Below are positions 1-57,999 of a stretch of 64,000 nt of DNA, one piece after another (within the stretch, counting starts at the first letter, position 1; each line of letters begins with the position of its first letter). Origin of the DNA: an uncultured Chryseobacterium sp. (lineage in GTDB: Bacteria; Bacteroidota; Bacteroidia; Palsa-965). The stretch lies in NCBI GenBank assembly GCA_966211705.1, contig CBIHOC010000010.1:8339-72338 (forward strand), in the 5' to 3' direction. The notes under the pieces are model-generated. The model worked only from the letters and a program-made list of their open reading frames with translations. It searched no databases and was not told the DNA's origin. Both the position numbers and the translations under genes were made by a program.

Positions 1-40
1 CCAAAACAAATGGTTGAAACCGGCGTGTTGTTGTAAATAT
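1..40 (-). repeat. Partial copy, cut by the window edge, of the ~100-bp cassette-boundary repeat (core AACAGCAyGC-N-GTTTTGGTATGAAGTTACGAA).
   Basis: Reverse complement reads ...aacaacacgccggtttcaaccatttgttttgg, which matches the core of the copies at 548-630 and 6325-6400. Confidence 0.45.
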
Positions 41-513
41 TATAAACTCCACTTTATAGCAGTAAGTTGTTCGTCACTAAGATAGCTTAGTGGCTTATCT
101 AAATCGGATCCTATTATTAATTTCCCGTTTTTGGCACAAGCTGCATAAATATTTGAGTCGGCGAGTATAGGATCGAGTGATGTAACCGACGGCGACGAAG
201 AGTGATCACCAAACCATACCGCTAAAGCTCCATCTTTAAATAATTCCAGACAAATCGACTCAAGAACCAAGCGCCATTTATCCGCCGAAGGCCAATGAAT
301 GAAATGGATTGCAAATGATGAGACCTTGTGCGTATCGTATTCAAATATACTCCATGCTAATTCGTAATCACCTTTATTCAATAAGCCAGAATCTAATGTT
401 TTTCTGCACGAGTCTTCCGGACGATATACGGCATAACAATATAACCCCTGTACTTCTTCCTGCCCGCCACCAGGAGCACGAAACATAATTCCCAAACTAT
501 TTTGTGCTACCAT
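40..513 (-). CDS. Hypothetical protein, 157 aa. Orphan immunity-like gene in an AT-rich cassette.
   Basis: ORF bounded by two copies of the cassette repeat. AT-rich composition is typical of toxin/immunity modules. No recognisable motif. Confidence 0.4.
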   Translation of the reverse strand: MVAQNSLGIMFRAPGGGQEEVQGLYCYAVYRPEDSCRKTLDSGLLNKGDYELAWSIFEYDTHKVSSFAIHFIHWPSADKWRLVLESICLELFKDGALAVWFGDHSSSPSVTSLDPILADSNIYAACAKNGKLIIGSDLDKPLSYLSDEQLTAIKWSL

Positions 514-640: not shown

Positions 641-1129
641 CTATATATAAGGTTTAAACATCTCTATATCCTGATTCCTGAGCAATTGTTTGACTTCTAC
701 CTTTATCCCATGAATATCGAATTGTTGCTTTTGAATAGAATGATTGTCCATAACTAAAAATGAAAATGTCTCTGCTTCTACCCACCAATCCCAATATTGT
801 GAACCGTTCTGGTAATCCAAAAGCTCTAATAAATACTTCTGCGCATTAGTTGCATCAAAACCTGTGTTCAGGTAATCTGTTCGTACAAATGATTCTATAT
901 GTTCTCCATTTTTAGTTAAAAAAACTTTTCTCTGCGAAGAGAGCACATTTTTAAAAACCGCAATGCCAAAATCCAGGTAAACCACCTCTTGAGGCGTCTG
1001 GTTCAAGGGGTGCTCGGCTAATTGAATGTTATACATCGGCAGGATCAGGTGCTGATTATATATAAGCAATTCGCCGCAGTATGTTTCGAACATACCCAAC
1101 TCTTCAAAGTGTTCCTTTGTTTCTATCAT
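641..1129 (-). CDS. Hypothetical protein, 162 aa. Immunity-like or orphan module.
   Basis: ORF in the AT-rich islet downstream of the DUF4157 toxin gene, followed by the cassette repeat. Confidence 0.4.
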   Translation of the reverse strand: MIETKEHFEELGMFETYCGELLIYNQHLILPMYNIQLAEHPLNQTPQEVVYLDFGIAVFKNVLSSQRKVFLTKNGEHIESFVRTDYLNTGFDATNAQKYLLELLDYQNGSQYWDWWVEAETFSFLVMDNHSIQKQQFDIHGIKVEVKQLLRNQDIEMFKPYI

Positions 1130-1222: not shown

Positions 1223-1762
1223 TCATTTCATGTGTATGAAAATGGCTGGAATTGCATCCGAAAGCCATATATTTTCATTTACCTTATAGAAACGAATACC
1301 GTGCGTTGAAGCTTGAACCGCTTCAATTATAAGAATGACCGGGCTCCGGGACTTTCTTTTTCCTACCAGTTCGGCATCTCCAGGCAGTCGGGATAAATGT
1401 ACATATTGACGTCCCATAGGGAGTAATCCTTTTTCTTTAATAGAATCCAGCAGCGTAGGTAACGTACCGTGGTAAAGGTTCTCCGATGGAACGGCAGCGT
1501 CAACGTGGAATTTTCCGGCTACGGAATGTCCATATATTGCCCGGATTCTATTACCTGAAATTTCATGTCGTTTTTTAGATAATGATCCGATCATTAATTC
1601 GATATCGGCCCGTGTGAGCATTGAATATTCTGAATATCCTCTCAAAGCCTGCAGCAATTGGTCAAGTAGAACCCATCCACTTTTATCCAATTCTAACTCA
1701 TACAGCCACGGTTCATGCCTTAACGCGTGTGAGATGACTTTACTCAACCTTTCAAAATCCAT
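1223..1762 (-). CDS. kptA: KptA/Tpt1-family RNA 2'-phosphotransferase homolog (ADP-ribosyltransferase fold).
   Basis: Protein shows the family motifs LSKxxSHALRHEPW...LD..GWV...L...IRA..GHS...LYHGT...I...GL....R.YVHLS. Confidence 0.7.
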   Translation of the reverse strand: MDFERLSKVISHALRHEPWLYELELDKSGWVLLDQLLQALRGYSEYSMLTRADIELMIGSLSKKRHEISGNRIRAIYGHSVAGKFHVDAAVPSENLYHGTLPTLLDSIKEKGLLPMGRQYVHLSRLPGDAELVGKRKSRSPVILIIEAVQASTHGIRFYKVNENIWLSDAIPAIFIHMK

Positions 1763-1766
1763 TCGC

Positions 1767-2228
1767 CTATGAGTATATTCGACTCACAAGTTCAGTAATA
1801 ACTTCCTGCGCTGATCTTAACTCCATTGTTGCTTCAAAATCCTTTGCAACACATTCAAACATGTTGTCATGAAAAGTGATGATATAGTGATTGAATCCAG
1901 TCCATTTTTTATCATCGAAGTAAGGGTGGATTTTATCAATAGTCTTCAGTTGTTCTATCCAATCCGACCCATTCAACCTAAATATTCCAGGGGACCGGAG
2001 GCCTATTTTATAGTATGGATGTCCTTGTATCGTTTCATTACCCGGCATTCCAAACTTATGCGCTATCGGAAGAATAAATTTCATCAACCGGATTGGTTCC
2101 TGGTCTGCGGTTTCTTCCAATTCTTTACCGAAGAACATTAAATAGAGCAACGTATCGTTTGCTACGACAAACGGTAATGGAGCTCCAGAATTAATGCCAG
2201 AGTCATCCAAAATTTCGTGAAGTTCCAT
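1767..2228 (-). CDS. Hypothetical protein, 153 aa. Likely immunity protein for the upstream toxin.
   Basis: Lies 75 bp downstream of the DUF4157 toxin gene on the same strand, in AT-rich sequence. Confidence 0.45.
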   Translation of the reverse strand: MELHEILDDSGINSGAPLPFVVANDTLLYLMFFGKELEETADQEPIRLMKFILPIAHKFGMPGNETIQGHPYYKIGLRSPGIFRLNGSDWIEQLKTIDKIHPYFDDKKWTGFNHYIITFHDNMFECVAKDFEATMELRSAQEVITELVSRIYS

Positions 2229-2302
2229 ATGATTTTTTAGAAACGGTACAACTTTCTTCGCACAAATATAGTACTCAGTTCTTTATATCTATATGCTTAT
2301 TC

Positions 2303-5300
2303 TTATTTAGTTATGACAGTTTGCGTACCAGATTGTTTAATTGAGTTAACGCCTTGTGAAAGGCCATTCCTCTTAAACTGATCGGTAAGTTGTTGTTCAA
2401 AAAACTCTTGCCCTGTTCTGTCAACAACATTCCATTGACTTCTAGGAATGTTTGCCTTTGTAAGAGCAGCAGAAGATCTGGTATTTAAAATTACAGTTTC
2501 ACCATTTCTGAAAACCACATCAATAGATACATCAGCGACCTTGATCTCTCCTGAGACTAATTGGGCCGCAACTTCGTCAGTTGTCATGCCTGAGAACTTT
2601 CCCGTTTTGCTGAAACTATTACCAAATGATTTTTGTGCCCATGTCGCATTTTCAATGTTAATTAACCCGCTTCGTTGTTCATTCCACACGGTTTTAGCCA
2701 TGTTTGCATCGTAATCCAAAAACTCATCGTTAAACTGTGATTTCGTACCCTTATAAACATTCGTCTCCACCTTCGCCGTATTCATCCACGCCTTCATACT
2801 CTGCAAATACGCTTTTGAATTCTTGAAGACTTGTAACACTTTCTGCCATTCAGCTAAAGCGCCAAGGAGCACATCAAACGATCCCTCCGCGATCATTGTT
2901 TTGCGCTGTTCGGGGGTCAGGTTTGACGTGAAAGTGCCTTCCAATATTTTTACAACACCTAAACTGGTAATCGCAAAAGAAATAAACCTGAAAAGCATGG
3001 ACCGCCCCAGGTTGCCCATTACCGTCCAGAATGCAGCCGTTATCAGTGGCAGTTCGGTCGTTATCCAGAAGAGCGCGCCTTCAACAACCCATGCGGCGGC
3101 GGCCATAATCATTTCCACCAGGGCGCCTACCAGGATCGCCACCAGGGCAACCAATGCCTCGATGAGCAGCACCAGCAGCACAATGAGCGCGATGATCGCA
3201 AGCACGAGAAGAATGATCGCGATAACAATACCTATGATCCATAAGATCGCCTCGCCTATCGCTAAAAGAATATCCCCGATGACCGAGAGGATCTGGCGGG
3301 TATAATAAGTGGCCTCCCATTCGCTGGCCAGTTGTTCCGCCTCGTCGCGGATGGCATCTTTGGTATCATTGAAGAGCTCTTCATTTTCCGCAAGCGCATC
3401 GTCAACTTTCTCTGTAATGTCTGTTTTCCCCTCGGCAAGGTCTGCTTCCCATTCAACAATGCTGTCGTTTGCTGTCTGGCGAAGCCCGGCAATGCTCTTG
3501 TTCACAATGTCCTTCATGCCGGCATTGGCCTGGTCGCCCGCCTTGGTATAGATATCAATGATCGACGCCTGGATATTTACAGACTGTGTCGAGAATTCGG
3601 TCTTTATCGTTTCCGTTCCCTTCTGAGCTTCGTCGCGCAGGCAGTCCAGCTGGTACAAAACTTCCTGCGAGGCTTCACAATACATCACCGATTTTGCGGC
3701 GACGCTCTGAACGATTTCCTCCTGCATTTCACCGGTAGACTTGACCAGCTGGTCTTCCGCCAGGTGAATGATCTGTATGCCGACATCATCCGGGCTATTG
3801 GCGACTTCGCTCTCCACGCCGGCAACCAGCTGCGCGGTTTCCTGCTTATAGTTTACAAGAGTCTGGCGGAGCTCGGCAGTACGTTTTTCTTCGTCGGTCG
3901 TGATTTCTGTAATGGCATTCGTCACCATCGCATCCAAATTCACCAGCGACTGTTGTTTCTGCATCTCCAGCTGCGCAATAACGCCTTCGCCTGATGCCAT
4001 ATAGGCAGCCAGGGGTTCTGCAGATGCATTTACCAGCGCATCGATCGACTGGTCCGCCAGGTCTCTGATGCTTTGTGCAACCTCCTCTTTATTTTCGGGT
4101 AAACTTTCTGCGGCTTCTTTCGATTCTTCCCTGAAACGTTCGGCGAGGTCGGCGGCATCCTCGTGAATTTGCTCGATCAGGGCATCATTATTTTCCTTGA
4201 TACCCTCGATGGCATCATCTCGCATTTCACCCAGGTTGTCTTCCATCCTGCCCCGGCGACCTTCAGCGTCATATTCCCGGATAAACCGGTCGATCTGTTC
4301 GGTCGTGTAACTGAACAGCTCCGAAACCTGTGTTTTCTCAATCGCCCGGACGCGTTTCTCTTCATCAACAGCGTGCTGTTCGGCCTCCTTCGCTAACCGC
4401 TCGCCTTCTTCTTCCAGCCGTTTCACTTCGCCGGCCGTCTCCAGGTCCAACCGTTCCAGCTCAGTTAACCGGAAGCCCTTGATCCTCATTTTCTCATACG
4501 CGTGCGCATCTTCCGTTTGCTTCTGGGCCGTTGCCATCTCGTTCCTGACGGCAGTTATCGCCAGATCGTATACAAGCTCCGTTTGGGCCCGTTTAATAAC
4601 GGATTCCGATTTTATTTTTTCCCGTTCAGCTGATGCAGTAATGCTAAGCTGCGCGATCTGTTCATTGATTGTCTGATCGACCTCGGTTTCCAGTTGCTGC
4701 GCTTCGGCTTTAAATGCGGCAAGCTCCTCGCGGGCGCTGGCTTTTCCTGCACGACGTTTCTTTCTTCCGCTCGTCTTCGACGCCGTTTTCAGATTTAAGG
4801 GTGCGGCCGTTTTTATCAACTCTCCTGTGCCCAGGTTTCCTTTCCCGGTCTTTTCCTTTTTCTCTCCTTTCCTTTCTGTCTTTTCTTCGTCTGTCTTTTC
4901 TTCTTCCTTTACTTTTTCTTTTTCTATGCCCTTTTTCTCCTCAGTAGTAATACCTGTCCCGGCCGGAATATTTTCAACCGTAACGTTCTCGCTTACATCC
5001 GGCGCAACCTGTTCCTCGGATAATTTAACGGATGAGGCCTGGATATACCCAAAAGCAGAAGTGGGCCCCAGCGTGCGCGCAAAGTACCATCCCGTTGCTT
5101 CGGATATATAAAGTAACGCCACGAGTTGATCAGGCTCCAGGGCTACTTCGACAACAGCATCGGCATTGTCGTTTGCTTTTAAGCCCGGACTTTCTCCTAT
5201 TACAATTCCTTTCTTCGGAGGCGTCAACATCACATAGCCCTCTTTCTCTGCCGGATCTTCCGCTTTCCGCATCACCTTCCTCCCCACTCCTCCCCCATTC

Positions 5301-5845
5301 TGCTGCGTATGCACCACCTCATGCGCCAGCAACTCCTTCCCACCCTTACTCCCCGGATCGTAATTCCCATCCTTGAAATAAATATCCTGCCCGTGCGTGA
5401 ACGCTTTCGCATTCACACTGTCCGCCATCTCGTGCGCGTTGCTGCCGGTGTGGATTTTCACATCGCTCAAATCCGCCCCCATCTTCCCGCCGATGTCCTG
5501 CTGCACGTTCTCCGGCAATGATTGTCCGCTGCCTTTGCTGCTGTTGAGCTGGCGCTGCAAACCTTCCGGCGCGTGCAACGTATCGCCTTCGGATTTCGAT
5601 TGCACGGAATTATTCGCAGATGAAAGCTGGCTGATGTTCGCGTCGCCGCCATCAACAACTTTGCGCGCGATCATATCCGCTTCCTGCTCCTGCGCGTCGC
5701 CGGGTTGTGAAACCTCAAGCTTCGCTTTGATCGACGCATTTTCCATCGCCATTTCCTCTTCTTCCTGGCGCATGACAAGCTCGCGCCGGCGACGGATCGT
5801 TTCGGCCTTCTCGTTCTTCGTATGGATCTTATTATAAAAACTCAT
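2303..5845 (-). CDS. DUF4157 (HExxH zincin-like) N-terminal domain eCIS-cargo or polymorphic-toxin protein, 1180 aa. Has a long coiled-coil/KE-rich region, a hydrophobic segment and a variable AT-rich C-terminal domain.
   Basis: N-terminus is near-identical to that of 6735-9500. Contains the motif LLAHEVVHTQQ. The C-terminal ~200 codons are AT-rich. Confidence 0.75.
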   Translation of the reverse strand: MSFYNKIHTKNEKAETIRRRRELVMRQEEEEMAMENASIKAKLEVSQPGDAQEQEADMIARKVVDGGDANISQLSSANNSVQSKSEGDTLHAPEGLQRQLNSSKGSGQSLPENVQQDIGGKMGADLSDVKIHTGSNAHEMADSVNAKAFTHGQDIYFKDGNYDPGSKGGKELLAHEVVHTQQNGGGVGRKVMRKAEDPAEKEGYVMLTPPKKGIVIGESPGLKANDNADAVVEVALEPDQLVALLYISEATGWYFARTLGPTSAFGYIQASSVKLSEEQVAPDVSENVTVENIPAGTGITTEEKKGIEKEKVKEEEKTDEEKTERKGEKKEKTGKGNLGTGELIKTAAPLNLKTASKTSGRKKRRAGKASAREELAAFKAEAQQLETEVDQTINEQIAQLSITASAEREKIKSESVIKRAQTELVYDLAITAVRNEMATAQKQTEDAHAYEKMRIKGFRLTELERLDLETAGEVKRLEEEGERLAKEAEQHAVDEEKRVRAIEKTQVSELFSYTTEQIDRFIREYDAEGRRGRMEDNLGEMRDDAIEGIKENNDALIEQIHEDAADLAERFREESKEAAESLPENKEEVAQSIRDLADQSIDALVNASAEPLAAYMASGEGVIAQLEMQKQQSLVNLDAMVTNAITEITTDEEKRTAELRQTLVNYKQETAQLVAGVESEVANSPDDVGIQIIHLAEDQLVKSTGEMQEEIVQSVAAKSVMYCEASQEVLYQLDCLRDEAQKGTETIKTEFSTQSVNIQASIIDIYTKAGDQANAGMKDIVNKSIAGLRQTANDSIVEWEADLAEGKTDITEKVDDALAENEELFNDTKDAIRDEAEQLASEWEATYYTRQILSVIGDILLAIGEAILWIIGIVIAIILLVLAIIALIVLLVLLIEALVALVAILVGALVEMIMAAAAWVVEGALFWITTELPLITAAFWTVMGNLGRSMLFRFISFAITSLGVVKILEGTFTSNLTPEQRKTMIAEGSFDVLLGALAEWQKVLQVFKNSKAYLQSMKAWMNTAKVETNVYKGTKSQFNDEFLDYDANMAKTVWNEQRSGLINIENATWAQKSFGNSFSKTGKFSGMTTDEVAAQLVSGEIKVADVSIDVVFRNGETVILNTRSSAALTKANIPRSQWNVVDRTGQEFFEQQLTDQFKRNGLSQGVNSIKQSGTQTVITK

Positions 5846-6290
5846 GATTCAAAAAGTCCAAAAAATTTAAAACCCAAACGCCGCCCCAACTCACAATCCC
5901 AGGGAGGTTTGATACCTCGTACATGATTACCCCTTTGGGATTTGGAATTTTTGGATTTATTTTTTCTATGGCGTTCTGTTCTCCTTCGCCAGCTCGCGGC
6001 GTATGCCTTTCACAAGATCGATGCCGCCGATCTCCGAAAGTCCTTTCACCGTGGCTTCCACGCAGCAGTATTTCAAAATGTTGCTTACGTTGGCGCCGGT
6101 CAATTCGTACTTCGATAATTTGTCGAACGAGATGTTTTCCGCATAGCTGAACCCTTCGGGCAACGCCTGTTTCCACAGCAGCATGCGCTCTTCTTTTGCC
6201 GGGCGCGGGAAATAGATCATGGCCTGGAAGCGGCGCGTCATGGCGGGATCGAGGTTGTGCTTCAGGTTGGTGGCGAGGATGGTGAGGCCG
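5300..6290. repeat. About 1-kb segmental duplication, copy A of the region at about 8955-9917: toxin 5' end plus intergenic region plus ATPase 3' end.
   Basis: Encoded N-terminal ~180 aa of both toxins and the ATPase C-terminal 91 aa are near-identical. Alignment is interrupted by an about 32-bp indel in the intergenic part and diverges at about 6287. Confidence 0.7.
5966..6287 (-). pseudogene. Truncated 3' fragment of an eCIS AAA ATPase gene, remnant of the segmental duplication.
   Basis: 91-aa ORF is identical to the C-terminus of the 9589-11151 product (MTRRFQAMIYFPRPAKEERMLLWKQ...KENRTP). Homology ends abruptly at about 6287. Confidence 0.6.
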
Positions 6291-6324: not shown

Positions 6325-6400
6325 CTTTATGCTAAAGCGCTTCGTAACTTCATACCAAAACACGTTGGTTAAAACCGGCGTGCTGTTCTGAAGTTCATTT
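6325..6400 (-). repeat. Cassette-boundary intergenic repeat, minus-orientation copy.
   Basis: Reverse complement contains aacagcacgccggttttaaccaacgtgttttggtatgaagttacgaagcgc. Confidence 0.6.
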
Positions 6401-6727
6401 CTTTTCATTCAGAAAGCTTCTCCAGTCTTCAAGCAATTGAATAAGCTCCACGGTTGAAATTTCTGTTTCGCTCTCTCCAAAATCATAGAATATTTTTGAT
6501 TTGTCCTTATAACTGTCGATGATGCAATAATCTGAACCTCCAAAAGAATACATCTCCATTTCGCCCTCTGCTACTTTCCGGACATTCTGGAGAACGTCCT
6601 CAACTCCTTCTATTGTTTGCAAAAAGCCGGAAGACAAGTCATAGAGCATTTCATAAGGGGGCTCAACATTTATCAATAGGATGCGTTCGTCAAGAACATT
6701 TTTTTCACTGAAATGGTATTTTATCAT
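6395..6727 (-). CDS. Hypothetical protein, 110 aa. Probable immunity protein for the adjacent EndoU-like toxin.
   Basis: Lies 8 bp downstream of the toxin stop on the same strand. Small, AT-rich. Confidence 0.5.
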   Translation of the reverse strand: MIKYHFSEKNVLDERILLINVEPPYEMLYDLSSGFLQTIEGVEDVLQNVRKVAEGEMEMYSFGGSDYCIIDSYKDKSKIFYDFGESETEISTVELIQLLEDWRSFLNEKK

Positions 6728-6734
6728 ATCGCGT

Positions 6735-9500
6735 TTAGAATTTAGGGAATGCAGAGATAATATTACCGCTTTTATCTAAATACATTTCAATCTTGGTACC
6801 ATCAGAAGCCGTCCCGAGCCAGGTATTGCCCTTTACAAAAATCTTATTGTTAAAGGCATGTGTTATTTCCTCCAGCACTTTTTGCTTATTCCAAGTGGGC
6901 CGAAAAAAGGACGAGTAGCCACCATTTGCAGTTTTACGGACCCAGTTGCCGGCTGCATCTTTCACTTCTACAATGGCCTTAAAAACCCCTTTGGGGCCAA
7001 TCTTTATTGTTCCGGGAACGATTCTCGCTGTACCACCTCTGATTGCATCAATATGATGTACTCCGGTCGCTTTTCCAGCTTTAATTTCACCTTCAAAAAT
7101 ATGCTTAATTGTTTTGGGCGTGATCTTACTCGTGATTTTTTTGACTTGGGTCACCACCTTCTTTGTCTTCGTCACCACTTTCTTCGCCGGTACAATCCCC
7201 TTCTTGAACGCCTTCTTCAACGGTCCGAGGCCTGGCATCTTTTTAGTCATTTTAGTGAACTTCGATACGATCTTCATCACCATCGTCATCACCTTGCTCA
7301 GCCACGTTACCGCTTTACCTCCCCATTTGATCGCAGTGATCGAGCCCCAGGAAACGACCGCCATTATTACCTCGGCAATGATGTAACCGATGAGCCAGCC
7401 CCAGTTGTAACCCGACACCCAAGGGTCGGGGGAGCTCAGCTTTTCGCCGAACGCGCTCATTTCTTTCCCGATCTCCTCGACAACCGCAGAAGCAATTTCC
7501 TTCATCTGTGCCCAGGTGAGGTTGCTCACAAATTCCCATATCTCTTTTGCCTTCTGGACGCCGTCACCGAAAAAGAGACTGTAGAGTACCTTAAAGGGCA
7601 TTGCCACCAGGTTGTAGATCGCAACGATCGTATCCCAGATGGACTCGAGGAACCCGACGACCAGTCCGCCGACGAAAGCAAGGCCGAACTGGATGCCCCA
7701 CCAGATAGATTCCAATATTTTCTTGACGGACTTCCAAATCTCGCCCGTGTAAGAACCCGAAGAAATGGTGCCTTTCTTTTCCAGCTCTATAATGTATTCT
7801 TTCGAAGGCATCCAGATCGTCATGCCTTTGATCAGGATCGGGTCGTGGTGGTACTGGTCGTTCTCTTCAAACCATCCGGGTGAGCTGGTATTTTTGATTT
7901 GCTTCAGGCGCCCTGAGATTCTATTGGCATAGACCACGCCGTTCACGTACATCCGTTTGTCCTCCTTGTCGCGCAGGCTGTAGTACTGCTTCACGAGCTG
8001 GGATAACGTCTGGCCCTTTTCGATGGTGTACAGGGTGGCATTAGGTTCCGGCGGGTTGAAAGCCAGCGCATGCTCTTCCACCCAGCCGCTTTTCGCGCCC
8101 GACTGGATAAAATACCAGCCGTTGTACTCCTTCGTCACGCTCACCCGCTCGTTCTGGTACACCATGAAACGATAGCCCAGCTCGCCGATGCCTTCCTGGC
8201 GCGGGATGGGTGTGAATTTCACCTTGAATTCGTTCTGGGCGACGATGCCGGTCTTCTTCACGTCATTACCGCGGCGGCCGAGCATGTACTGCACATCTTC
8301 GTCGTTGCGGATGATCGGCGTGAAGCCGCCCATGCGCTGCACAACTCCGGTGGCGGTTGCGATATATTCCTGGTTAAGCGCCACGAGGTGCAGCAGCTTC
8401 TGCGTGTCCGCTTCGCTGACCCCGGCGATGAGGTTGTTGATCGATGATGATGAGCTGGTGAACTGTCCTTTCGTATAGAACCACTTCTTCTCCGTATTGA
8501 TCCCTTTGATCTCGTATTCCAGCATGGCGCCGCTGCCCACGACGAGCAGGAGCTGGTGCTCCGACAGGTTGTCAAGCCCCGCAAGAGGCGCAGGAGCGGT
8601 GGTCGCATTGACGTTAATGTAGATCTCCCCACCGTCCTGCGGCTCGATCTTGATCTGCCGGCTGTAGCGGATATTCCGCATCGGGACAGGGTTGATCGGG
8701 CGGGTAGAGAACTCCGGGTCGAACGCTACGCTGGGGGCTTTTTGCCCGGCCGTATTCTTTTGTATACCGACGAAATTGTTCGACACCGAAATTTTCCCGA
8801 GCGGTGTAGCTGCCACGAGACGATAGCTGTCGGCAATCCCCCACACCATGGGCGAATCGAAAACATTCTTGAGCTCACTGAGCGGCTTGGGGTCTGTCTG
8901 GCGCTGAATTTTCCGCCCCACGCCATTTTGATTCTGCTGCGCCTGCCCGGCATTCTGCTGCGTATGCACAACCTCATGCGCCAGCAACTCCTTCCCACCC
9001 TTGCTCCCCGGATCATAATTCCCATCCTTGAAATAAATATCCTGTCCGTGCGTGAACGCCTTTGCATTCACACTGTCCGCCATCTCGTGCGCGTTGCTGC
9101 CGGTGTGGATTTTCACGTCGCTCAAATCCGCCCCCATCTTCCCGCCGATGTCCTGCTGCACATTCTCCGGCAACGATTGCCCGTTTCCTTTGCTGCTGTC
9201 GAGCTGGCGCTGCAAACCTTCCGGCGCACGCAACGTGTCGCCTTCAGATTTGGATTGCACGGAGCTGCTTGCAGGCGAAAGCTGGCTGATGTTCGCATCG
9301 CCGCCGTCGACCACTTTCCGCGCGATCATGTCTGCTTCCTGCTCCTGCGCGTCGCCGGGTTGCGAAACCTCAAGCTTCGCTTTGATCGACGCATTTTCCA
9401 TCGCCATTTCCTCTTCTTCCTGGCGCATGACAAGCTCGCGCCGGCGACGGATCGTTTCGGCCTTCTCGTTCTTCGTATGGATCTTATTATAAAAACTCAT
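6735..9500 (-). CDS. DUF4157 N-terminal domain toxin, 921 aa from MSFYNK. Has a central hydrophobic junction segment and a C-terminal domain resembling bacterial EndoU-type RNase toxins.
   Basis: Contains HExxH (LLAHEVVHTQQ). C-terminal HIFEGEIKAGKATGVHHIDAIRGG...GVFKAIVEVKD..GNWVRK...NGGYSSFFRPTWNKQKVLEEI matches the EndoU_bacteria signature as I recall it. Start chosen at the second ATG (9500) by homology to 2303-5845. Confidence 0.75.
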   Translation of the reverse strand: MSFYNKIHTKNEKAETIRRRRELVMRQEEEEMAMENASIKAKLEVSQPGDAQEQEADMIARKVVDGGDANISQLSPASSSVQSKSEGDTLRAPEGLQRQLDSSKGNGQSLPENVQQDIGGKMGADLSDVKIHTGSNAHEMADSVNAKAFTHGQDIYFKDGNYDPGSKGGKELLAHEVVHTQQNAGQAQQNQNGVGRKIQRQTDPKPLSELKNVFDSPMVWGIADSYRLVAATPLGKISVSNNFVGIQKNTAGQKAPSVAFDPEFSTRPINPVPMRNIRYSRQIKIEPQDGGEIYINVNATTAPAPLAGLDNLSEHQLLLVVGSGAMLEYEIKGINTEKKWFYTKGQFTSSSSSINNLIAGVSEADTQKLLHLVALNQEYIATATGVVQRMGGFTPIIRNDEDVQYMLGRRGNDVKKTGIVAQNEFKVKFTPIPRQEGIGELGYRFMVYQNERVSVTKEYNGWYFIQSGAKSGWVEEHALAFNPPEPNATLYTIEKGQTLSQLVKQYYSLRDKEDKRMYVNGVVYANRISGRLKQIKNTSSPGWFEENDQYHHDPILIKGMTIWMPSKEYIIELEKKGTISSGSYTGEIWKSVKKILESIWWGIQFGLAFVGGLVVGFLESIWDTIVAIYNLVAMPFKVLYSLFFGDGVQKAKEIWEFVSNLTWAQMKEIASAVVEEIGKEMSAFGEKLSSPDPWVSGYNWGWLIGYIIAEVIMAVVSWGSITAIKWGGKAVTWLSKVMTMVMKIVSKFTKMTKKMPGLGPLKKAFKKGIVPAKKVVTKTKKVVTQVKKITSKITPKTIKHIFEGEIKAGKATGVHHIDAIRGGTARIVPGTIKIGPKGVFKAIVEVKDAAGNWVRKTANGGYSSFFRPTWNKQKVLEEITHAFNNKIFVKGNTWLGTASDGTKIEMYLDKSGNIISAFPKF

Positions 9501-9588
9501 GCTTAAAAATTCCAAATATTACAAAACCCAAATCCCACCTCGTACATGATTTACCCTTTGGGAATTTGGAATTTCCGCTTTGTTTTTT

Positions 9589-11151
9589 CTATGGCGTCCT
9601 GTTCTCCTTCGCCAGCTCGCGGCGTATGCCTTTCACAAGGTCGATGCCGCCGATCTCCGAAAGTCCTTTCACCGTGGCTTCCACGCAACAGTATTTCAAA
9701 ATGTTGCTCACATTGGCGCCGGTCAATTCGTACTTCGATAATTTGTCGAACGAGATGTTTTCCGCATAGCTGAACCCTTCGGGCAACGCCTGTTTCCACA
9801 GCAGCATGCGCTCTTCTTTTGCCGGGCGCGGGAAATAGATCATGGCCTGGAAGCGGCGCGTCATGGCGGGATCGAGGTTGTGCTTCAGGTTGGTGGCGAG
9901 GATGGTGAGGCCGGGATAATCTTCCATCTTTTGCAGCAAATACGCCACCTCGAGGTTGGCCCATTTGTCGTTGGAGGAATTGACCTCGGTGCGCTTGGTG
10001 AACAGCGCGTCGGCTTCGTCGAAGAAGAGAATGCAGTCTTTGTTCTCGGAACGGTCGAACAGGAGCGCGAGGTTTTTTTCCGTTTCGCCGATGTATTTGG
10101 AGACAACCATGGACAGGTCGATGCGGAAGACGTCTTTCCCGAACGTTTTTCCCATCAGCGTCGCGGTCAACGTTTTTCCCGTTCCCGGAGGGCCGAAGAA
10201 GAGGCAGGGAAAACCACGTTTGATCTTTCTCCGCGTGTTGAGCGTTTTCGATGTGGCCACCCAGTTCATCACTTCCTGCACTTCCTGCCGTGTGTGCTTG
10301 TTCAGCACGAGGTCGTCCCACTCGAGATCGGTGCGGGCGAGCGTTGCGGGGAACGCGCGGCCGAAATCGGGACGGGGCTTTTCGCTGCACAATAAATACT
10401 GCACATATTCCGGGGCGAGCGCCACGACATGGTTTCGCTCGTTGGTTTCATCGTCGGTGTGGCTGACGGCGCGGAACCCGAGCACCTGCTCGCGCACGAG
10501 CACGCTCTGTTTCAGCGAAAGCTGGTAGAACACCATGTTCGTGATGTCTTCGCCGGCGAGCATGTACAGCGCGGTCTGCAGCGTGGGCACGAAGCTGGTG
10601 AACGTGGCGTCGAAATAGCCGCCCATTTCAGGATATTCCACTTTATACACCCGGCTATCGCTGCGCAGGCGTTTTGTAAAAACTTCGGGACTTACATGCG
10701 GCAGCAAACCGCAGAGCAGCAGCAAACGTTCGGCAGGCGAAAGCGCGAAGCGGTTGACAAGGTCGGCGTACGCGGATTTTTTTCCTTCGAGGTCCGGAAG
10801 CTGCAGCGTGGAAAAGAACGTCACCTCGCCGGCTTCACCTTTCAGCCGCTTCAGGCGGTTGTCAAGCAATGCCTGGAACCATTCCATCTCCTCGATAATG
10901 ATCTTCGAATTTTCAGAAACGACGCCGGCATCGAGAAGATGTTTCCGTTCGCGTTCATAACCGTTGAGCTTCACTTTTTCCTGTTCGTATTCCATAGTTC
11001 GTCGCGTTACACTTTTCAGCACGATAAAGATGGCGAACGAAAGAGGCAATCGCCCCGGACAGTTTGGTGCCAAAAAATTTGTTAAAACGGGGTATGTGCA
11101 ACTAGTCAACCTGCTGATTACCAATAGCAAAGTCCGGACAGTAAAATGCAA
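9589..11151 (-). CDS. eCIS-associated AAA+ ATPase (Afp15/Pvc15-like).
   Basis: Walker A GPPGTGKT, Walker B ILFFDEAD, and sensor/arginine finger segments. Paralog of 48574-49923. Sits at the edge of the eCIS structural operon. Confidence 0.8.
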   Translation of the reverse strand: MHFTVRTLLLVISRLTSCTYPVLTNFLAPNCPGRLPLSFAIFIVLKSVTRRTMEYEQEKVKLNGYERERKHLLDAGVVSENSKIIIEEMEWFQALLDNRLKRLKGEAGEVTFFSTLQLPDLEGKKSAYADLVNRFALSPAERLLLLCGLLPHVSPEVFTKRLRSDSRVYKVEYPEMGGYFDATFTSFVPTLQTALYMLAGEDITNMVFYQLSLKQSVLVREQVLGFRAVSHTDDETNERNHVVALAPEYVQYLLCSEKPRPDFGRAFPATLARTDLEWDDLVLNKHTRQEVQEVMNWVATSKTLNTRRKIKRGFPCLFFGPPGTGKTLTATLMGKTFGKDVFRIDLSMVVSKYIGETEKNLALLFDRSENKDCILFFDEADALFTKRTEVNSSNDKWANLEVAYLLQKMEDYPGLTILATNLKHNLDPAMTRRFQAMIYFPRPAKEERMLLWKQALPEGFSYAENISFDKLSKYELTGANVSNILKYCCVEATVKGLSEIGGIDLVKGIRRELAKENRTP

Positions 11152-36624: not shown

Positions 36625-37445
36625 ATGTTCGCTGAACCGCAGCAGAAGAACGTATCGCAATTGCAATCCCCGCAGTCGCAATCGCCCCACATCCAGGCAA
36701 AGCTGGAAGTAGGCGCCAAAGACGACCCGCAGGAGAAAGAAGCAGATGCCGTCGCCGACTCGGTGATGCGCATGAGCGAAAGTTCCGGCGCTGCAGGCGA
36801 TGCAACCGGCGTAAAGGCGCAGCAGGAAAGCCCCATGGCCCGCCTGCTGCGCCGTCATCCCGACGCGCCACGCCCGCAAATCATCCACCGTTTGGCCGAC
36901 GCGCCGAAAGCCCAGCCTGTTCAACGCGCGCCCGCAGCAATACAAGGCCCCGCATCACCCGCCCTCCGCAAAAAAGAAGGCGAAGAAAACGCCATTGCGA
37001 AAGCGCCGGAGCATGGGGCAGTGCTGCGAATGCACGATGCAGACGAAGAAACGGTGCAGAAGAAAGAGGATGAGGAAAGTGTGATGAAGATGGACGATGA
37101 GGAAGGTCTGCAGAAGAAAGACGAAGAAGAGAGCGTGATGAAAATGGACGACGGCGGAAAAGGCGGCACCGCTCCGGCTGCTGTCGAGCAAGGCATTCAG
37201 TCCGGCAAAGGCCAGGGAAACCCGCTCCCTGAAAATGTACAGCAGGACATCGGCGGAAAGATGGGCGCGGATTTGAGTGATGTGCGTGTGCATACGGGAA
37301 GCAACGCGCATGAGATGTCCACCGCGATCAACGCGAAAGCGTTCACGCACGGGCAGGATGTGTATTTCAAGAACGGAAATTATGATACCTCGAGCAGTTC
37401 GGGGAAGAAGTTATTGACGCACGAGCTGACGCATACGCAGCAGCA
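36625..37445 (+). repeat. About 820-bp segment duplicated at about 97% identity at 42313-43133. Covers the shared N-terminal part of toxin genes 3 and 4.
   Basis: Direct comparison of the two nucleotide stretches shows only scattered substitutions from the ATG through the HExxH motif. Confidence 0.8.
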
Positions 37446-39261
37446 GAAGGCGCCCGGCGTGCAAAGGAAGGTGCAGCGGGGGTTCTGGGGGGATGTCTGG
37501 GAAGGTGTTAAATCGGTCGGAAACTTTGTATACGAAAATACCGGCCTCAAGACGATCGTCGAAACCGGCAAAGACATTTATCACTGGGCCGTTGATTCCC
37601 CCGAAGAGTTCCAGGCCTACATGCAGGGGAAGCTCAAAGATAAGATCGACGAGATCAGGGCCCAGAAAGAGCCGACCGTGATGTTTACCGCCAAATACTG
37701 GGCAATGAAAACCATTGCCATCGCGATGAATCCGCTGTCGATCTTCGCGATGCCTTCCACGCAGGCCATCTGGGATATTTTCCGGCAGGCCAAGCTGGGT
37801 TATTATGAGCACCTCTACAACCTGGGCAACGAATACGTCCTTAAGAAGAATGAAGACACCGGTAAAATGGAGCGCGTGAAAAACGAAAGCTTCAAAAAGG
37901 GTGGATATGCCGAGGTGTTCTCGAACCAGATGCGCAACATGCTCGATCCCCGCTTTATGCTGGGCGAAGTGGTCGGCATCTTTAAAGGCATCGGCGGCTG
38001 GTTCGTCGACCTGTGGGAGATGATCAAATGGTTCGGTGAAATGATCTGGGGCGGCATCAAAGGCACCTGGAACCTGCTTGTCAATTTTGAGCCGCCTGCA
38101 TTTATGACACAAGCTGCCGATCTCGCAACATCAGCCGGTGCCTGGTTCAAAGAGAACGGGAAAGCAATCATGGAAGAGCTCGGCATGCTGCTCCAGAATC
38201 CCACCAAGCTCAAGGAGGTCCTCGCTGACCTGAGAGCTGCGATCAAAACCGGCGCAGAGGGCCTCGCGTACGGAGCCGGCCAGGGCATGGCCGCGCTGCA
38301 GGTGAAGATCATGAGCATGAGCGCTTACGACCAGGGCGAGATGGTGGGCAAAGCCATCGGCTACCTCATCCCCGAGATCATCATCGCCGTGTTTAGCGGC
38401 ACCATCGTGAACTGGATCAAAGGCGGCGTGAAAGCGCTGCAGGTTTTCGGCTCGGCGCTCAAAGGCCTCAAAGCCATCAAGGCGCTCATGAACGGCGCGC
38501 GCGGCGTGATGAATGCTTTTGAGAAAATGGGCCGCCTGTTCAAGGCCCTTGGCAGCAAGATCGGCGGCGCACTCGGCAAGGCGTTCGACAATGTGATGGA
38601 TTTCTTCAAAGGGATTTTGAAATGGGGAGATGAGGCGCCGGCAGGTGCGGTGGATGATGTGCATGCGCCGCATGACCGGACGCCGGACGGGCCGGATGGG
38701 CCGAGGAATGATGGGCCGGATGGGCCGAAGAATAAGCCCGACGCCGACAACGCTATGCGGAATTTAGCGTACGGAGAGATGGTAGCGGAAGTGATACAGA
38801 GTAATGCAGCGGATGAACCGATCGCGAAGTTCAAGAGCGATATTTATAAAATAAAACGTCATTTCCCGATCGTTAAGGCATTCAAGTTTGTTCCGGATGG
38901 AGCTGGAGGATTATACGTTTATATGAAAGCTAGCCCATGGCGACTTGGAGGGCATAAGAAGGCACCCAAATATTCTCCCACTTCAAAACACCAAAAAGGA
39001 GGATGGGGAACTGAAATGGATCTAGACGACATAACAGCTCAACATGTGTTAGACAACTCAACGGTACTCGGAAAACAGAGCTATGGCTATCATAATGGAA
39101 AAATATATGAATTCCAATATGATAATGTCGGCGGATGGCATGGGTATCCTATACCGTCAATTCAACTTATTTCAAAATCAGGAGGCACGAAAATTTTGAG
39201 GCAGTGGTTAAAAGATGGTATCTTGTCAAAACCTGATTATAATAAGTTAATTGGTGGGTGA
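36625..39261 (+). CDS. DUF4157 N-terminal domain eCIS cargo toxin, 878 aa, with the conserved hydrophobic junction segment and an AT-rich variable C-terminal toxin domain.
   Basis: Contains HExxH (LLTHELTHTQQQ). N-terminal ~270 aa are near-identical to those of 42313-45096. Has the junction motif GYLIPEIIIAVFSGTIVNWIKGG. GC content drops sharply at about 38760. Confidence 0.75.
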   Translation: MFAEPQQKNVSQLQSPQSQSPHIQAKLEVGAKDDPQEKEADAVADSVMRMSESSGAAGDATGVKAQQESPMARLLRRHPDAPRPQIIHRLADAPKAQPVQRAPAAIQGPASPALRKKEGEENAIAKAPEHGAVLRMHDADEETVQKKEDEESVMKMDDEEGLQKKDEEESVMKMDDGGKGGTAPAAVEQGIQSGKGQGNPLPENVQQDIGGKMGADLSDVRVHTGSNAHEMSTAINAKAFTHGQDVYFKNGNYDTSSSSGKKLLTHELTHTQQQKAPGVQRKVQRGFWGDVWEGVKSVGNFVYENTGLKTIVETGKDIYHWAVDSPEEFQAYMQGKLKDKIDEIRAQKEPTVMFTAKYWAMKTIAIAMNPLSIFAMPSTQAIWDIFRQAKLGYYEHLYNLGNEYVLKKNEDTGKMERVKNESFKKGGYAEVFSNQMRNMLDPRFMLGEVVGIFKGIGGWFVDLWEMIKWFGEMIWGGIKGTWNLLVNFEPPAFMTQAADLATSAGAWFKENGKAIMEELGMLLQNPTKLKEVLADLRAAIKTGAEGLAYGAGQGMAALQVKIMSMSAYDQGEMVGKAIGYLIPEIIIAVFSGTIVNWIKGGVKALQVFGSALKGLKAIKALMNGARGVMNAFEKMGRLFKALGSKIGGALGKAFDNVMDFFKGILKWGDEAPAGAVDDVHAPHDRTPDGPDGPRNDGPDGPKNKPDADNAMRNLAYGEMVAEVIQSNAADEPIAKFKSDIYKIKRHFPIVKAFKFVPDGAGGLYVYMKASPWRLGGHKKAPKYSPTSKHQKGGWGTEMDLDDITAQHVLDNSTVLGKQSYGYHNGKIYEFQYDNVGGWHGYPIPSIQLISKSGGTKILRQWLKDGILSKPDYNKLIGG

Positions 39262-39823
39262 CATGGAAAAGTTATACTTCGAACTCACACCTTGTGAGCA
39301 TCCATATGCAAATGAACCCAGCTCAAAAGCTGATGCCTGGAGTATAATTGCAATGAAGCACCTTTCTCTAGGTAAAGCTCATGCTATTTTTGAATGGCAA
39401 TGGGATGCCTTTCCGGTACTTGAGTGGTTTTTTACAACTAAGGAAGCTATGCTAACAGAAAACTTTCCATTTAATACGATTGAAGGAAGGTGTATTGCGG
39501 AGTGCAGGACGAAGCTGTATGCCTATGATTCATTTTTAAACGAGAAGGAAGAAGACGATTACCTCCTCAGCTTAGAAAACTATTTTTCAAAACACAGCTT
39601 TACGCTTCCGGGCACTCCTTTGCCGTTATTTTATATCGGCTTATTCAAGGGCAAAGGCGACATCTCTTTTTACAATTCAACAAATGAGCTTGAATACTAT
39701 TCCTTTAATATGCCATCGTTTATTAACGACACGGAAGAAACTATTAATATTTTTCTTATGGAATGGAAAAAGGAGTACGCACGGGATCTGGGATTAGAGA
39801 GATTAGCAACCATACTTAAATAA
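39251..39823 (+). CDS. Hypothetical protein, 190 aa. Probable cognate immunity protein.
   Basis: Overlaps the toxin stop. AT-rich. Followed by the cassette repeat. Confidence 0.5.
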   Translation: MVGDMEKLYFELTPCEHPYANEPSSKADAWSIIAMKHLSLGKAHAIFEWQWDAFPVLEWFFTTKEAMLTENFPFNTIEGRCIAECRTKLYAYDSFLNEKEEDDYLLSLENYFSKHSFTLPGTPLPLFYIGLFKGKGDISFYNSTNELEYYSFNMPSFINDTEETINIFLMEWKKEYARDLGLERLATILK

Positions 39824-45150: not shown

Positions 45151-45621
45151 ATGAAATGGCTGATTTCTTTGTTTGTTGTTTTAATAGGCGTTGGCCTGTT
45201 ATATGCACCGGTTGCTTCCGTTAAACGGGACACTATTGATATTTCTTTCAAGGGGATAACTCAAAAAACCTATCCCGGTACAGTAACTGTATCCGGTAAA
45301 AAAATACTTAACGATTGGCCCTCTGCAGCACTTGTGATTTTCTCCCTGTTTTTGCCCTTGCTCCTCCAGGTCCAGGGATTATTCTTTTCCGAACAATCAT
45401 GGAATATCCTCCGTTTTCTTTTACTTTTTGAGCTGCTGATTGCCCTGGCCGGTATTTTTTCCACCTGGCTCTCCATCGAAACGATACTGATGGTCTCATC
45501 CGGCACATGGCGCTGGGGACGTTACGCGCTGTTGTTCATCGAAACGTTTTATGCTGTCGTTTTACTTTTACTGGTGACCCCTGCAGGTAGAAATCTGCGT
45601 ACACTGTTGCTTTATCGTTAG
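45151..45621 (+). CDS. Hypothetical polytopic membrane protein, 156 aa. Probable immunity protein.
   Basis: Four or five hydrophobic helices (LISLFVVLIGVGLLY...). Immediately downstream of the toxin. Confidence 0.5.
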   Translation: MKWLISLFVVLIGVGLLYAPVASVKRDTIDISFKGITQKTYPGTVTVSGKKILNDWPSAALVIFSLFLPLLLQVQGLFFSEQSWNILRFLLLFELLIALAGIFSTWLSIETILMVSSGTWRWGRYALLFIETFYAVVLLLLVTPAGRNLRTLLLYR

Positions 45622-57196: not shown

Positions 57197-57999
57197 TCCC
57201 CGTCCGTTTCCGTGGCAAGGAGCTGCAATCCGTTTTGCATCGCGGGCTGGCGGAAAGCCTCGACGTCGGTGTGAAAAAAACCGCTGAGCAGGAGTTCCCC
57301 GCCCGGTTTCAGCGCATCGACGTATGCGTCCAGCGCATTCAGCAGCACATTCTTATTGATATTGGCAAGCACCACGTCAAATTTACGGCCTGCGATCGCA
57401 TTTTCCCTCCCAAGGTTAACGCTTACACCCCGCGCTTCATTGCGTAAAACATTCTCACGCGCGTTCTCCACCGAATTTTCTTCAATGTCGATCGCCGCAA
57501 CGCCCGCCGCGCCCAGCTTCGAGGCAAGAATAGCCAGCAAGCCCGTTCCGCATCCCATGTCGAGGACATAACGCCCATCGAGGCGCATTGTTAATAACTT
57601 TTCAGCCATGAGGCGGGTCGTGGGGTGGTGACCGGTGCCGAACGACTGCTGGGGTTGAATGATAAGCTCCAGCTCCACGCCCGGCACAGGCGGATGGAAA
57701 GGTGCACGCACAAGGCAACGCCCGGAAACGAGCACCGGCTGAAAACCTTTCTCCCATTCCGCATTCCAGTTTTGCCCGGGGATCAGCTTCCGGGATACGT
57801 TTACCCGGCCCAGGTCCCCCGCAAATCCTTGTACCGGAGCGAGTAAAGCTTCCGAAAATTGCTCCGAAGGAATATAAGCCAGGAAACCGTCTTCCGTTTC
57901 CGCGAAGCTTTCAAACCCCATTTCCGCCAGCTCTGTGATCAGCAGATCCGTTCCGGGCTGGCGGGGAGTCACTTTAACGTCGAGCTCGAGATAATCCAT
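57166..57999 (-). CDS. prmA: Ribosomal protein L11 methyltransferase PrmA.
   Basis: SFGTGHHPTTRL...VLDMGCGTGLLAILASKLGA...AIDIEE SAM-methyltransferase motifs typical of PrmA. Confidence 0.85.
   Translation of the reverse strand: MDYLELDVKVTPRQPGTDLLITELAEMGFESFAETEDGFLAYIPSEQFSEALLAPVQGFAGDLGRVNVSRKLIPGQNWNAEWEKGFQPVLVSGRCLVRAPFHPPVPGVELELIIQPQQSFGTGHHPTTRLMAEKLLTMRLDGRYVLDMGCGTGLLAILASKLGAAGVAAIDIEENSVENARENVLRNEARGVSVNLGRENAIAGRKFDVVLANINKNVLLNALDAYVDALKPGGELLLSGFFHTDVEAFRQPAMQNGLQLLATETDGEWALLHFTRS

Follow-up and report, generated by a model that had tools for sequence, protein, structure and literature searches.

RNA 2'-phosphotransferases of the Tpt1/KptA family are widespread and active in bacteria, yet no bacterial pathway making their substrate is known, which has been a long-standing conundrum (PMC6333775, PMC10622864). 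In archaea, the kinase Ark1 installs a 2'-phosphate on tRNA and Tpt1 removes it; archaeal Tpt1 also removes the 2'-phosphate of NADP+, NADPH and 2',5'-ADP (PMC10622864). For bacteria, a kinase phosphorylating an internal 2'-OH has been named as a possible source of the substrate (PMC6333775). Here we describe a Tpt1 gene found in a stretch of 64,000 nucleotides, called the window below, from an uncultured Chryseobacterium sp. (assembly GCA_966211705.1, contig CBIHOC010000010.1, positions 8,339 to 72,338). This Tpt1 is the third component of a mobile cassette, made of a toxin C-terminal domain, an immunity protein and Tpt1 itself; in the window, the cassette has been recombined onto a cargo protein of an extracellular contractile injection system (eCIS).

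Two described kinds of toxin come closest to the toxin in this cassette. Tox-ParBL1 was defined by a predicted ParB fold, the motifs [ST] and [NT][RT][RT], and immunity proteins of the Imm-SUKH type (PMC3482391). The same catalogue includes in the ParB superfamily sulfiredoxin, an ATP-dependent phosphotransferase; PVC/eCIS delivery is not listed there for ParBL1, and KptA is not mentioned (PMC3482391). In the literature searched, no later relevant paper uses the name Tox-ParBL1. ToxB, a CdiA toxin with the ParB-CTPase fold, was reported by Kaljevic et al. in a preprint of May 2026 (bioRxiv 10.64898/2026.05.05.722872). It binds ATP via a GNHR motif, is a slow ATPase in vitro and needs ATP binding for killing; it compacts the nucleoid and is toxic to plant cells, its mechanism being left unresolved by the authors. 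ToxB also co-purifies with ATP/ADP, and the authors consider a nucleotide-derived toxic product possible (same preprint). The toxins of eCIS, finally, are linked to the eCIS_core domain, which serves as an eCIS marker (PMC8213781).

The cassette and its carrier are encoded in the window as follows.

2303..5845, minus strand: eCIS cargo toxin of 1180 amino acids, with an eCIS_core domain, a long charged linker, a hydrophobic segment and a C-terminal toxin domain

5288..5518, minus strand: eCIS_core (DUF4157) domain of this toxin (residues 110-186; PF13699, E 1e-27)

2306..2671, minus strand: C-terminal toxin domain (residues 1059-1180) of predicted Tox-ParBL1 type, subfamily A1

1767..2228, minus strand: immunity-type gene for a protein of 153 amino acids (W_153), presumed cognate inhibitor of the toxin domain

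1223..1762, minus strand: Tpt1/KptA RNA 2'-phosphotransferase, third gene of the cassette, 179 amino acids, ATG start, PF01885

The ATG of Tpt1 lies 4 nt past the stop codon of the 153-residue gene, and no terminator-like site was found on the minus strand between toxin and Tpt1. From the toxin C-terminal region onward the G+C content is 0.37-0.43, versus 0.50-0.59 in the locus core; this drop is as expected if the toxin C-terminal domain and the downstream genes were swapped horizontally as one module.

In a Pfam search, the product of 1223..1762 matches PF01885 (PTS_2-RNA, Tpt1/KptA) with E 8.7e-33 and 114.3 bits against a cut-off of 26; its residues 5-169 cover profile positions 5-176 out of 177, including both lobes. 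The best solved structure is that of Clostridium thermocellum Tpt1 (CthTpt1, 6E3A/6EDE; E 2.5e-50 over residues 1-177), with 84 of 177 positions identical (47%). The alignment to CthTpt1 begins at residue 1, and Tpt1 carries no N-terminal leader or extension. Its tetrad R15-H16-R65-R118 is intact and corresponds in the alignment to R18, H19, R68 and R121 of CthTpt1, while the HGT motif at residues 98-100 (H98-G99-T100) aligns with 101-HGT-103; K63 and the NAD-binding R136 are present as well (for the roles of active-site residues see PMC6333775). The catalytic and NAD-binding residues are invariant in 121 out of 121 surveyed homologues, and with such a tetrad a merely structural role of Tpt1 is unlikely. 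The equivalog models for RNA 2'-phosphotransferase in NCBIfam (NF002012-NF002015) score the protein at 90-152 bits, with cut-offs of 231-279. The best of these scores, 152 bits versus a cut-off of 231, leaves it outside the named equivalog groups of NCBI; Tpt1 is therefore a family member by Pfam and active site, its membership being unaffected. It is a full-length member of the enzyme family with an intact active site, and the enzyme itself is ordinary. A sequence-only reading of the window had named a clear Tpt1/KptA-family protein at 1223-1762, among small AT-rich genes downstream of a DUF4157 toxin. The family call is borne out by PF01885, the CthTpt1 identity and the tetrad; the setting, by the eCIS_core toxin of 1180 residues and the G+C content of the genes that follow it.

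We surveyed the neighbourhoods of the relatives of Tpt1 in 78 non-redundant reference-genome loci, obtained from the best 80 of at least 565 relatives, by calling open reading frames (ORFs). One relative (P0001) is 99% identical to Tpt1 of the window, its genomic context not being on record; the other nearest ones are 48-58% identical and scattered over many phyla. The closest Tpt1 with a context (L001, 57%), from a metagenome-assembled genome of Bacteroidota, follows an AAA gene, an eCIS_core protein and a small gene, the toxin C-terminus and the small gene both being unrelated to their window counterparts. A layout recurs across the survey, in which a gene for 112-163 amino acids lies close before Tpt1 on the same strand and is itself preceded by the gene of a protein of up to 2,500 amino acids. 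At their C-termini, these upstream proteins show homology to the last ~120 residues of the window toxin (BLASTP E down to 7e-28). By single-linkage clustering, the toxin-domain family of the window (family A) stands two genes upstream of Tpt1 in 30 of the 78 loci. It divides into subfamily A1, which includes the window toxin, and another branch, A2.

The same triad is present in three of four isolate genomes checked, those of Vibrio ruber, Enterococcus rotai and Clostridium tetanomorphum. In all three it is embedded among toxin/immunity cassettes that otherwise have two genes, such as LHH with SUKH, EndoU with a small gene, and Endonuclease_NS_2 with a YezG-like gene.

The linkage was also examined from the side of the toxin. 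Metagenome contigs were scanned with the alignment of the A1 toxin domain, giving 80 loci, so that the following figure holds for A1 only. A locus was taken as decidable if it had an intact domain and enough flanking sequence, which applied to 50 of the 80. Tpt1 adjoins the A1 toxin in 45 of these 50; after de-replication it does so in 32 of 36 clusters at 90% identity and in 13 of 14 at 70%. Three gene orders occur among the 45 loci. In 31, toxin, immunity gene and Tpt1 follow each other on one strand; in eight, a Tpt1 of a divergent clade comes after the immunity gene on the opposite, convergent strand; in the remaining six, Tpt1 directly follows the toxin, and a W_153-type gene lies convergently downstream on the opposite strand. 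In the convergent Tpt1 order, the linkage is kept without co-transcription. Junctions between toxin, immunity gene and Tpt1 are often of 4 nt or overlapping. This divergent clade was seen on the convergent strand right after the A1 immunity gene (L086-L088, L090, L092, L093, L113, L152).

These counts couple Tpt1 genetically to one toxin-domain family, whichever the phylum, carrier type or gene order; the coupling is specific to the ParBL1-type C-terminal domain, as opposed to DUF4157.

Within these cassettes, Tpt1 segregates with the immunity gene and not with the toxin. Four loci hold an immunity gene and Tpt1 with no toxin domain in the 5.7-8 kb upstream (L008, L023, L031, L042), and in four others a toxin remnant or a frameshifted toxin precedes the pair (L029, L034, L044, L072). 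Tpt1 behaves in this respect as an immunity gene does: it lies beside the toxin, is inherited together with it and is kept as an orphan after toxin loss. In one Bacillus genome (sp. XF8, L003), SUKH, Imm47 and DUF2625 genes form an island that contains a Tpt1 homologue and lacks a toxin, an arrangement of the polyimmunity type.

This pattern bears on the idea that Tpt1 is itself harmful, for example by NAD+-dependent ADP-ribose capping of 5'-phosphorylated RNA or DNA ends or by NAD+ consumption, and is co-delivered with the toxin or activates it. Tpt1 does share the fold of ADP-ribosyltransferase toxins (PMC6333775), capping of 5'-phosphate ends is an activity of some Tpt1 enzymes, and the existence of 'KptA/Tpt1-like toxins' has been a matter of speculation (PMC11833690). 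However, Tpt1 has no N-terminal extension, eCIS_core or other trafficking module; it also accompanies Rhs, CdiA and PT-HINT carriers, which offer no obvious way out of the cell for a small protein made separately. Decaying cassettes retain it with the immunity gene rather than with the toxin, and no dedicated immunity gene against Tpt1 is present. Given the missing trafficking module, the Rhs and CdiA carriers and the retention with the immunity gene, we disfavour such a role and consider it improbable.

The sequence-only reading had placed Tpt1 in a toxin-immunity islet rather than a housekeeping context, a view now supported by the linkage counts (30/78, 45/50 and 3/4). It had set as the contrary outcome a Tpt1 syntenic elsewhere independently of toxin loci, and the opposite emerged: the gene is syntenic with the toxin C-terminal domain. 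Its suggestion of an immunity or repair factor, or else a secondary effector, survives in the first part, which the retention of Tpt1 with the immunity gene favours, and not in the second.

The gene between toxin and Tpt1 has its own relatives. W_153 has no match in Pfam or NCBIfam, and direct BLAST against the first 80 loci gave nothing; relatives came later, with profile methods and metagenomic loci. In BLASTP, it matches genes beside the closest relatives of the toxin domain (L084, L085, L089, L106) with E down to 7e-34. It is also a distant member of 'U1 cluster 1' (hidden Markov model E 1.4e-5, hhalign probability 80%), a family of small proteins encoded after A1-type toxins in 17 genome loci. 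The partner of subfamily A2 is a second small-protein family, again from 17 loci, one member of which matches SUKH/SMI1_KNR4 (E 9e-9), a classical immunity superfamily. Of 59 metagenomic loci whose downstream sequence is long enough, 47 have a small gene after the toxin domain; among genome loci carrying the domain, all do. The AlphaFold2 model of W_153 made from its single sequence was unusable (predicted local distance difference test, pLDDT, 37). Judging from its position and relatives, we presume that the product of 1767..2228 is the cognate inhibitor of the toxin. With a separate immunity-type gene standing between toxin and Tpt1, Tpt1 is an additional component and not the sole immunity gene.

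Could Tpt1 nevertheless protect by simply binding the toxin, its enzymatic activity being irrelevant? Its place directly after the toxin gene in six loci would be in keeping with this. In those same loci, however, the W_153-type gene is still there on the opposite strand, and the catalytic and NAD-binding residues show the full invariance noted above (121/121). Moreover, the conservation of Tpt1 (48-57% identity across phyla) is well above that usual for toxin-binding immunity proteins, and it is kept across two toxin subfamilies whose immunity proteins are unrelated. We regard a non-catalytic inhibitor as very improbable.

As for the toxin, its C-terminus gave nothing significant in the PDB (by single sequence and by profile), Pfam or NCBIfam. 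The domain family counts 2,525 cluster representatives at E <= 1e-3; this size comes from an alignment query, a single-domain query of the large database having returned 5 matches. The match runs to the extreme C-terminus in all 150 representatives listed, on carriers of up to 4195 amino acids. Source names of the homologues include filamentous haemagglutinin and Rhs, and PT-HINT (PF07591) is present; altogether the carriers comprise Rhs, CdiA, PT-HINT and eCIS proteins of unrelated phyla. One homologue (P0195) is named by NCBI as 'ParB/Srx family N-terminal domain-containing protein'.

Two motifs characterize the family, F-(A/S)-Q-x-(S/T) and (L/D)-N-(T/R)-R. The window toxin has W-A-Q-K-S-F, with the conserved Gln and Ser/Thr, and I-L-N-T-R-S at the site of the phosphate-binding GxxR motif of ParB. 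Residues Q41, N91, T92 and R93 are nearly invariant among 119 sequences; in the family alignments A2/A3 the same holds for Q, N-T-R, A, A-G, T, R and Q. An AlphaFold2 model built from the 119 sequences has pLDDT >90 from residue 30 on, and 12 of its 14 top Foldseek matches in the PDB are ParB-CTP, KorB, Noc or sulfiredoxin structures, with weak scores (E 0.08-0.3, probability <=0.80). From the model and from the published motif description, we infer a ParB/sulfiredoxin-like domain of the Tox-ParBL1 type. The toxin domain family itself was catalogued in 2012 and is not new.

We now propose how the three components could act together. The ParB/sulfiredoxin-like toxin domain would bind ATP and put a phosphate on a ribose 2'-OH. 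Its target would most likely be an essential RNA (tRNA or rRNA), alternatively an adenine nucleotide or cofactor, whose function would be blocked. In the producer cell, the 153-residue protein would bind the toxin and block its active site. Tpt1 would remove the toxin-made 2'-phosphate using NAD+; such repair would cover damage escaping the stoichiometric immunity protein, or inflicted by non-cognate toxin variants of neighbours.

A protective, toxin-linked role for Tpt1 appears to us quite probable. The specific scheme, in which the toxin would be an ATP-dependent 2'-OH kinase acting on RNA or, less probably, a nucleotide and Tpt1 a catalytic repair immunity, involves toxin chemistry, substrate and protection by Tpt1 as inferred steps, and we see its chances as evenly balanced. 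In its widest form, ParBL1-type toxins, perhaps ToxB-like ones too, would be RNA 2'-phosphorylating kinases, with bacterial Tpt1 largely the eraser of that mark; this extension is tentative and rather doubtful. The ATPase of ToxB observed without a substrate, the compaction of the nucleoid and the toxicity to plant cells would fit a kinase whose target is a conserved RNA. ToxB itself provides no proof of kinase activity.

Several observations weigh against the kinase and repair scheme. On the side of the toxin, the toxin-domain profile hits ParB with a non-significant E of 1.1, and the fold assignment draws on weak Foldseek scores, this non-significant profile and the annotation of others. ParB-type toxins were also guessed to be nucleases by Zhang et al. 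2012 (PMC3482391). On the side of the linkage, five of the 50 decidable toxin loci have no Tpt1, Agrobacterium vitis, the fourth isolate checked, has toxin and small gene without it, and the presence of a dedicated immunity-type gene means that Tpt1 is not strictly required. The survey from Tpt1 covers only the nearest 80 of at least 565 relatives, and within it, Tpt1 keeps other company too. A toxin domain of an unrelated family (family B) precedes it in six loci (L001, L012, L018, L022, L026, L043), an Imm48 gene (E 7e-28) stands directly before it in ten Paenibacillus loci, and the remaining 26 loci, one third of those surveyed, have miscellaneous genes and no recurrent neighbour. The family B and Imm48 associations require either convergent lesions or a more generic role of Tpt1.

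Family B (alignment A5) has an invariant PHP.L.GG...SGH.KP pattern, the protein of L001 lying at 1789-5556. Searches of Pfam, NCBIfam and the PDB gave no match for it, and profile comparison likewise showed no resemblance to family A or Tpt1. In the Imm48-Tpt1 loci (L024, L030, L048, L062, L065-L067, L071, L080, L083) no toxin is recognisable upstream; the toxin partner of Imm48 was listed as unknown by Zhang et al. 2012 (PMC3482391).

A phylogeny of Tpt1 sorted by toxin class was considered and rejected: the neighbour-joining tree is star-like, with classes interleaved in a roughly taxonomic order. Such a tree suggests that toxin/immunity cassettes were swapped in front of a retained Tpt1. 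In that case, the lesion would be common to several toxin folds, or else protection by Tpt1 would extend more broadly.

The same tree, roughly tracking taxonomy rather than toxin class, together with the heterogeneous neighbours of one third of the loci and the presence of Tpt1 behind family B and Imm48, could also be read as the mark of a passenger: a stand-alone enzyme, for instance of NADP(H) metabolism, that inserts into variable islands with no functional tie to toxins. Against this, adjacency in 45 of 50 loci, in three gene orders and across phyla, greatly exceeds what chance would give for a gene occurring about once per genome, and other cassettes of the same arrays are without Tpt1. 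We find a passenger quite improbable.

Two further explanations keep a catalytic Tpt1 and change the lesion. In the first, a ParBL1-type or EndoU toxin would cleave RNA, the 2',3'-cyclic phosphate ends would be opened to 2'-phosphates, and their removal by Tpt1 would let ligases reseal the RNA. A role of KptA in RNA repair against metal-independent RNases has indeed been proposed (PMC9503650), and the nuclease guess of 2012 points the same way (PMC3482391). Moreover, EndoU cassettes adjoin the Tpt1 cassette in the window, in E. rotai (L165) and in C. tetanomorphum (L166), an adjacency that may be a coincidence. However, EndoU cassettes in the same arrays have two genes and Tpt1 is always placed with the ParBL1 unit, and rejoining RNA is beyond Tpt1 alone. 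An RNA ligase, 2H phosphoesterase or other healing enzyme does not recur in the cassettes; downstream of Tpt1, no recurrent fourth gene (ligase, 2H, macro or Nudix) was found. The predicted toxin fold, besides, is that of NTP-binding proteins and phosphotransferases and not of known metal-independent RNases. Clean-up of RNA ends is thus a rather unlikely explanation.

In the second, the toxin would 2'-phosphorylate an adenine nucleotide or cofactor into an NADP-like or 2',5'-ADP-like compound, from which Tpt1 would remove the phosphate, with no RNA target at all. The activity of archaeal Tpt1 on NADP+, NADPH and 2',5'-ADP (PMC10622864) speaks for it, as do the co-purification of ToxB with ATP/ADP and the nucleotide-derived product considered for it. 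Spending one NAD+ per turnover, however, would make restoration of the pool inefficient, and ToxB yielded only ADP from ATP in vitro. Tpt1 of the window is also closest to enzymes proven on internal RNA 2'-phosphates, and NADP(H) activity of a bacterial Tpt1 is not reported in the literature covered. We consider this detoxification unlikely.

Returning to the toxin-immunity-Tpt1 cassette as we propose it, its genomic setting is an eCIS locus. The window encodes the structural proteins Pvc16, two sheath proteins, tube, VgrG-like spike, baseplate J and tape measure, along with two AAA ATPases, and eCIS_core (formerly DUF4157) is found on four of its proteins. The 1180-residue toxin combines an N-terminal eCIS_core with adjacent eCIS structural genes, as expected of eCIS cargo. 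Around the cassette, the minus-strand array contains the following features.

9589..11151, minus strand: AAA ATPase heading the minus-strand cargo operon, eCIS accessory ATPase (PF00004, E 5.9e-28)

6735..9515, minus strand: first cargo toxin of the array, 926 amino acids, eCIS_core N-terminus and bacterial EndoU RNase C-terminus

6395..6727, minus strand: gene for 110 amino acids directly after the EndoU toxin, presumed EndoU immunity by position only

5966..6241, minus strand: AAA remnant ORF of 91 codons, 100% identical to residues 430-520 of the AAA ATPase

5296..6241, minus strand: duplicated junction, comprising the 3' end of the AAA gene and the 5' part of the toxin gene

641..1129, minus strand: gene for 162 amino acids downstream of Tpt1, function unassigned by family

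40..513, minus strand: gene for 157 amino acids at the end of the islet, without significant family match

The domains of the EndoU toxin were identified with Pfam (PF13699, E 2.5e-27; PF14436, E 1.4e-22); the 110-residue gene after it has no family match in Pfam or NCBIfam. The N-terminal ~200 residues of the 1180-residue toxin are nearly identical to those of this neighbour. Direct repeats link 5914-6213 with 9537-9836 (95%) and 5296-5595 with 8951-9250 (94%). The whole duplication, 5296-6241 versus 8951-9870, spans the AAA 3' end and ~550 nt of the toxin 5' part at 94-100% identity, and implies that the second toxin unit was appended behind the EndoU cassette by recombination. Polymorphic toxin arrays typically recombine in their conserved part, and the duplication shows how cargo cassettes are stacked. 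The two small genes behind Tpt1 are possible orphan immunity genes: the 162-residue one has no match in Pfam or NCBIfam, and neither it nor the 157-residue one has a homologue in ~160 related loci.

Elsewhere in the window, two more eCIS_core proteins, at 36625-39261 (plus strand, 878 amino acids) and 42313-45096 (plus strand, 927 amino acids), lack a recognisable C-terminal domain and are followed by small genes without family match (39251..39823 and 45151..45621); these are probably further cargo/immunity pairs. Three very large ORFs without Pfam match, inside or next to the eCIS cluster at 28746-33296 (plus strand, 1516 amino acids), 33321-36554 (plus strand, 1077 amino acids) and 52595-57196 (minus strand, 1533 amino acids), are candidate tail-fibre or receptor-binding proteins, or further cargo. 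The second AAA ATPase (48574-49923, plus strand) and the tape measure (49898-51799, plus strand) stand distant from the sheath and tube block, past the plus-strand cargo. PrmA (57166..57999, minus strand) marks the return to ordinary chromosomal genes.

The toxin-immunity-Tpt1 triad, its near-obligate linkage and its occurrence as eCIS cargo are undescribed in the openly accessible literature on eCIS, in reviews on ADP-ribosylation and Tpt1, in the polymorphic toxin catalogue and in the ToxB preprint. A phylum-spanning linkage to toxins with a predicted phosphotransferase-type fold offers a testable answer to the conundrum of bacterial Tpt1, namely that the toxin makes its substrate. If true, this would be the first physiological source of a substrate for bacterial Tpt1, and RNA 2'-phosphorylation would be a new toxin chemistry. 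Tpt1 would then represent a new class of catalytic immunity, spending NAD+ on RNA repair, and join a small set of catalytic immunity proteins; the uncharacterised Tox-ParBL1 family would gain a mechanism, and ToxB a pointer to one. For eCIS biology, it would mean that a cargo toxin cassette came with two-layer self-protection.

We finally compare the locus with the systems already described. As an enzyme, Tpt1 of the window belongs to the same family as CthTpt1 (6E3A/6EDE) and E. coli KptA, with the same length and two-lobe architecture end to end; CthTpt1 has the same tetrad, HGT motif and NAD-binding arginine. What sets it apart is its position as a fixed member of a toxin cassette, bacterial Tpt1 having been described without known substrate or context (PMC6333775, PMC8120803).

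The carrier toxin resembles the eCIS toxins of Geller et al. 2021 in its eCIS_core N-terminus, long linker and variable C-terminal toxin, and in its location at the edge of an eCIS structural cluster, where some immunity genes lie alongside. Unlike the window locus, the eCIS literature covered features neither Tpt1/KptA nor a ParB-like cargo domain. The C-terminal domain shares with Tox-ParBL1 (N. gonorrhoeae NGK_2271 type) its extreme C-terminal place on Rhs, filamentous-haemagglutinin and HINT carriers, the predicted ParB fold, the N-terminal Ser/Thr, the [NT][RT][RT] arginine motif and SUKH partners. The Tpt1 partner, the W_153/'U1 cluster 1' immunity and the eCIS delivery are not in the published description of Tox-ParBL1, and no Pfam model covers the domain of the window family. 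In ToxB, too, a ParB fold, which is predicted for the window domain, serves as the warhead of a polymorphic toxin, with a small immunity protein encoded downstream and a GxxR-type phosphate motif, GNHR in ToxB and xNTR in the window family. It is matched by PF02195, whereas the window domain is not, so that ToxB is probably another branch of the superfamily; Tpt1 is not mentioned with it in the preprint.

The writer-eraser chemistry proposed here for toxin and Tpt1 is the same as that of Ark1 and Tpt1 on archaeal tRNA (2'-phospho-U47). Unlike the ParBL1-type domain, Ark1 is a physiological, tRNA-stabilising enzyme and not a toxin. Catalytic repair immunity follows the same logic, a neighbour enzyme stripping the mark of the toxin from its target; NADAR, for guanine ADP-ribosylation, is among such mark-reversing enzymes (PMC8120803, PMC11833690). 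Tpt1 would differ from these in chemistry, having an ADP-ribosyltransferase fold, removing a phosphate and consuming NAD+. By comparison, NADAR, the ADP-ribosylhydrolase Tri1 (which counters Tre1) and the macrodomain of DarG (which counters DarT) are hydrolases that remove ADP-ribose. Unlike all three, the proposed Tpt1 eraser sits beside a separate immunity protein of the binding type.

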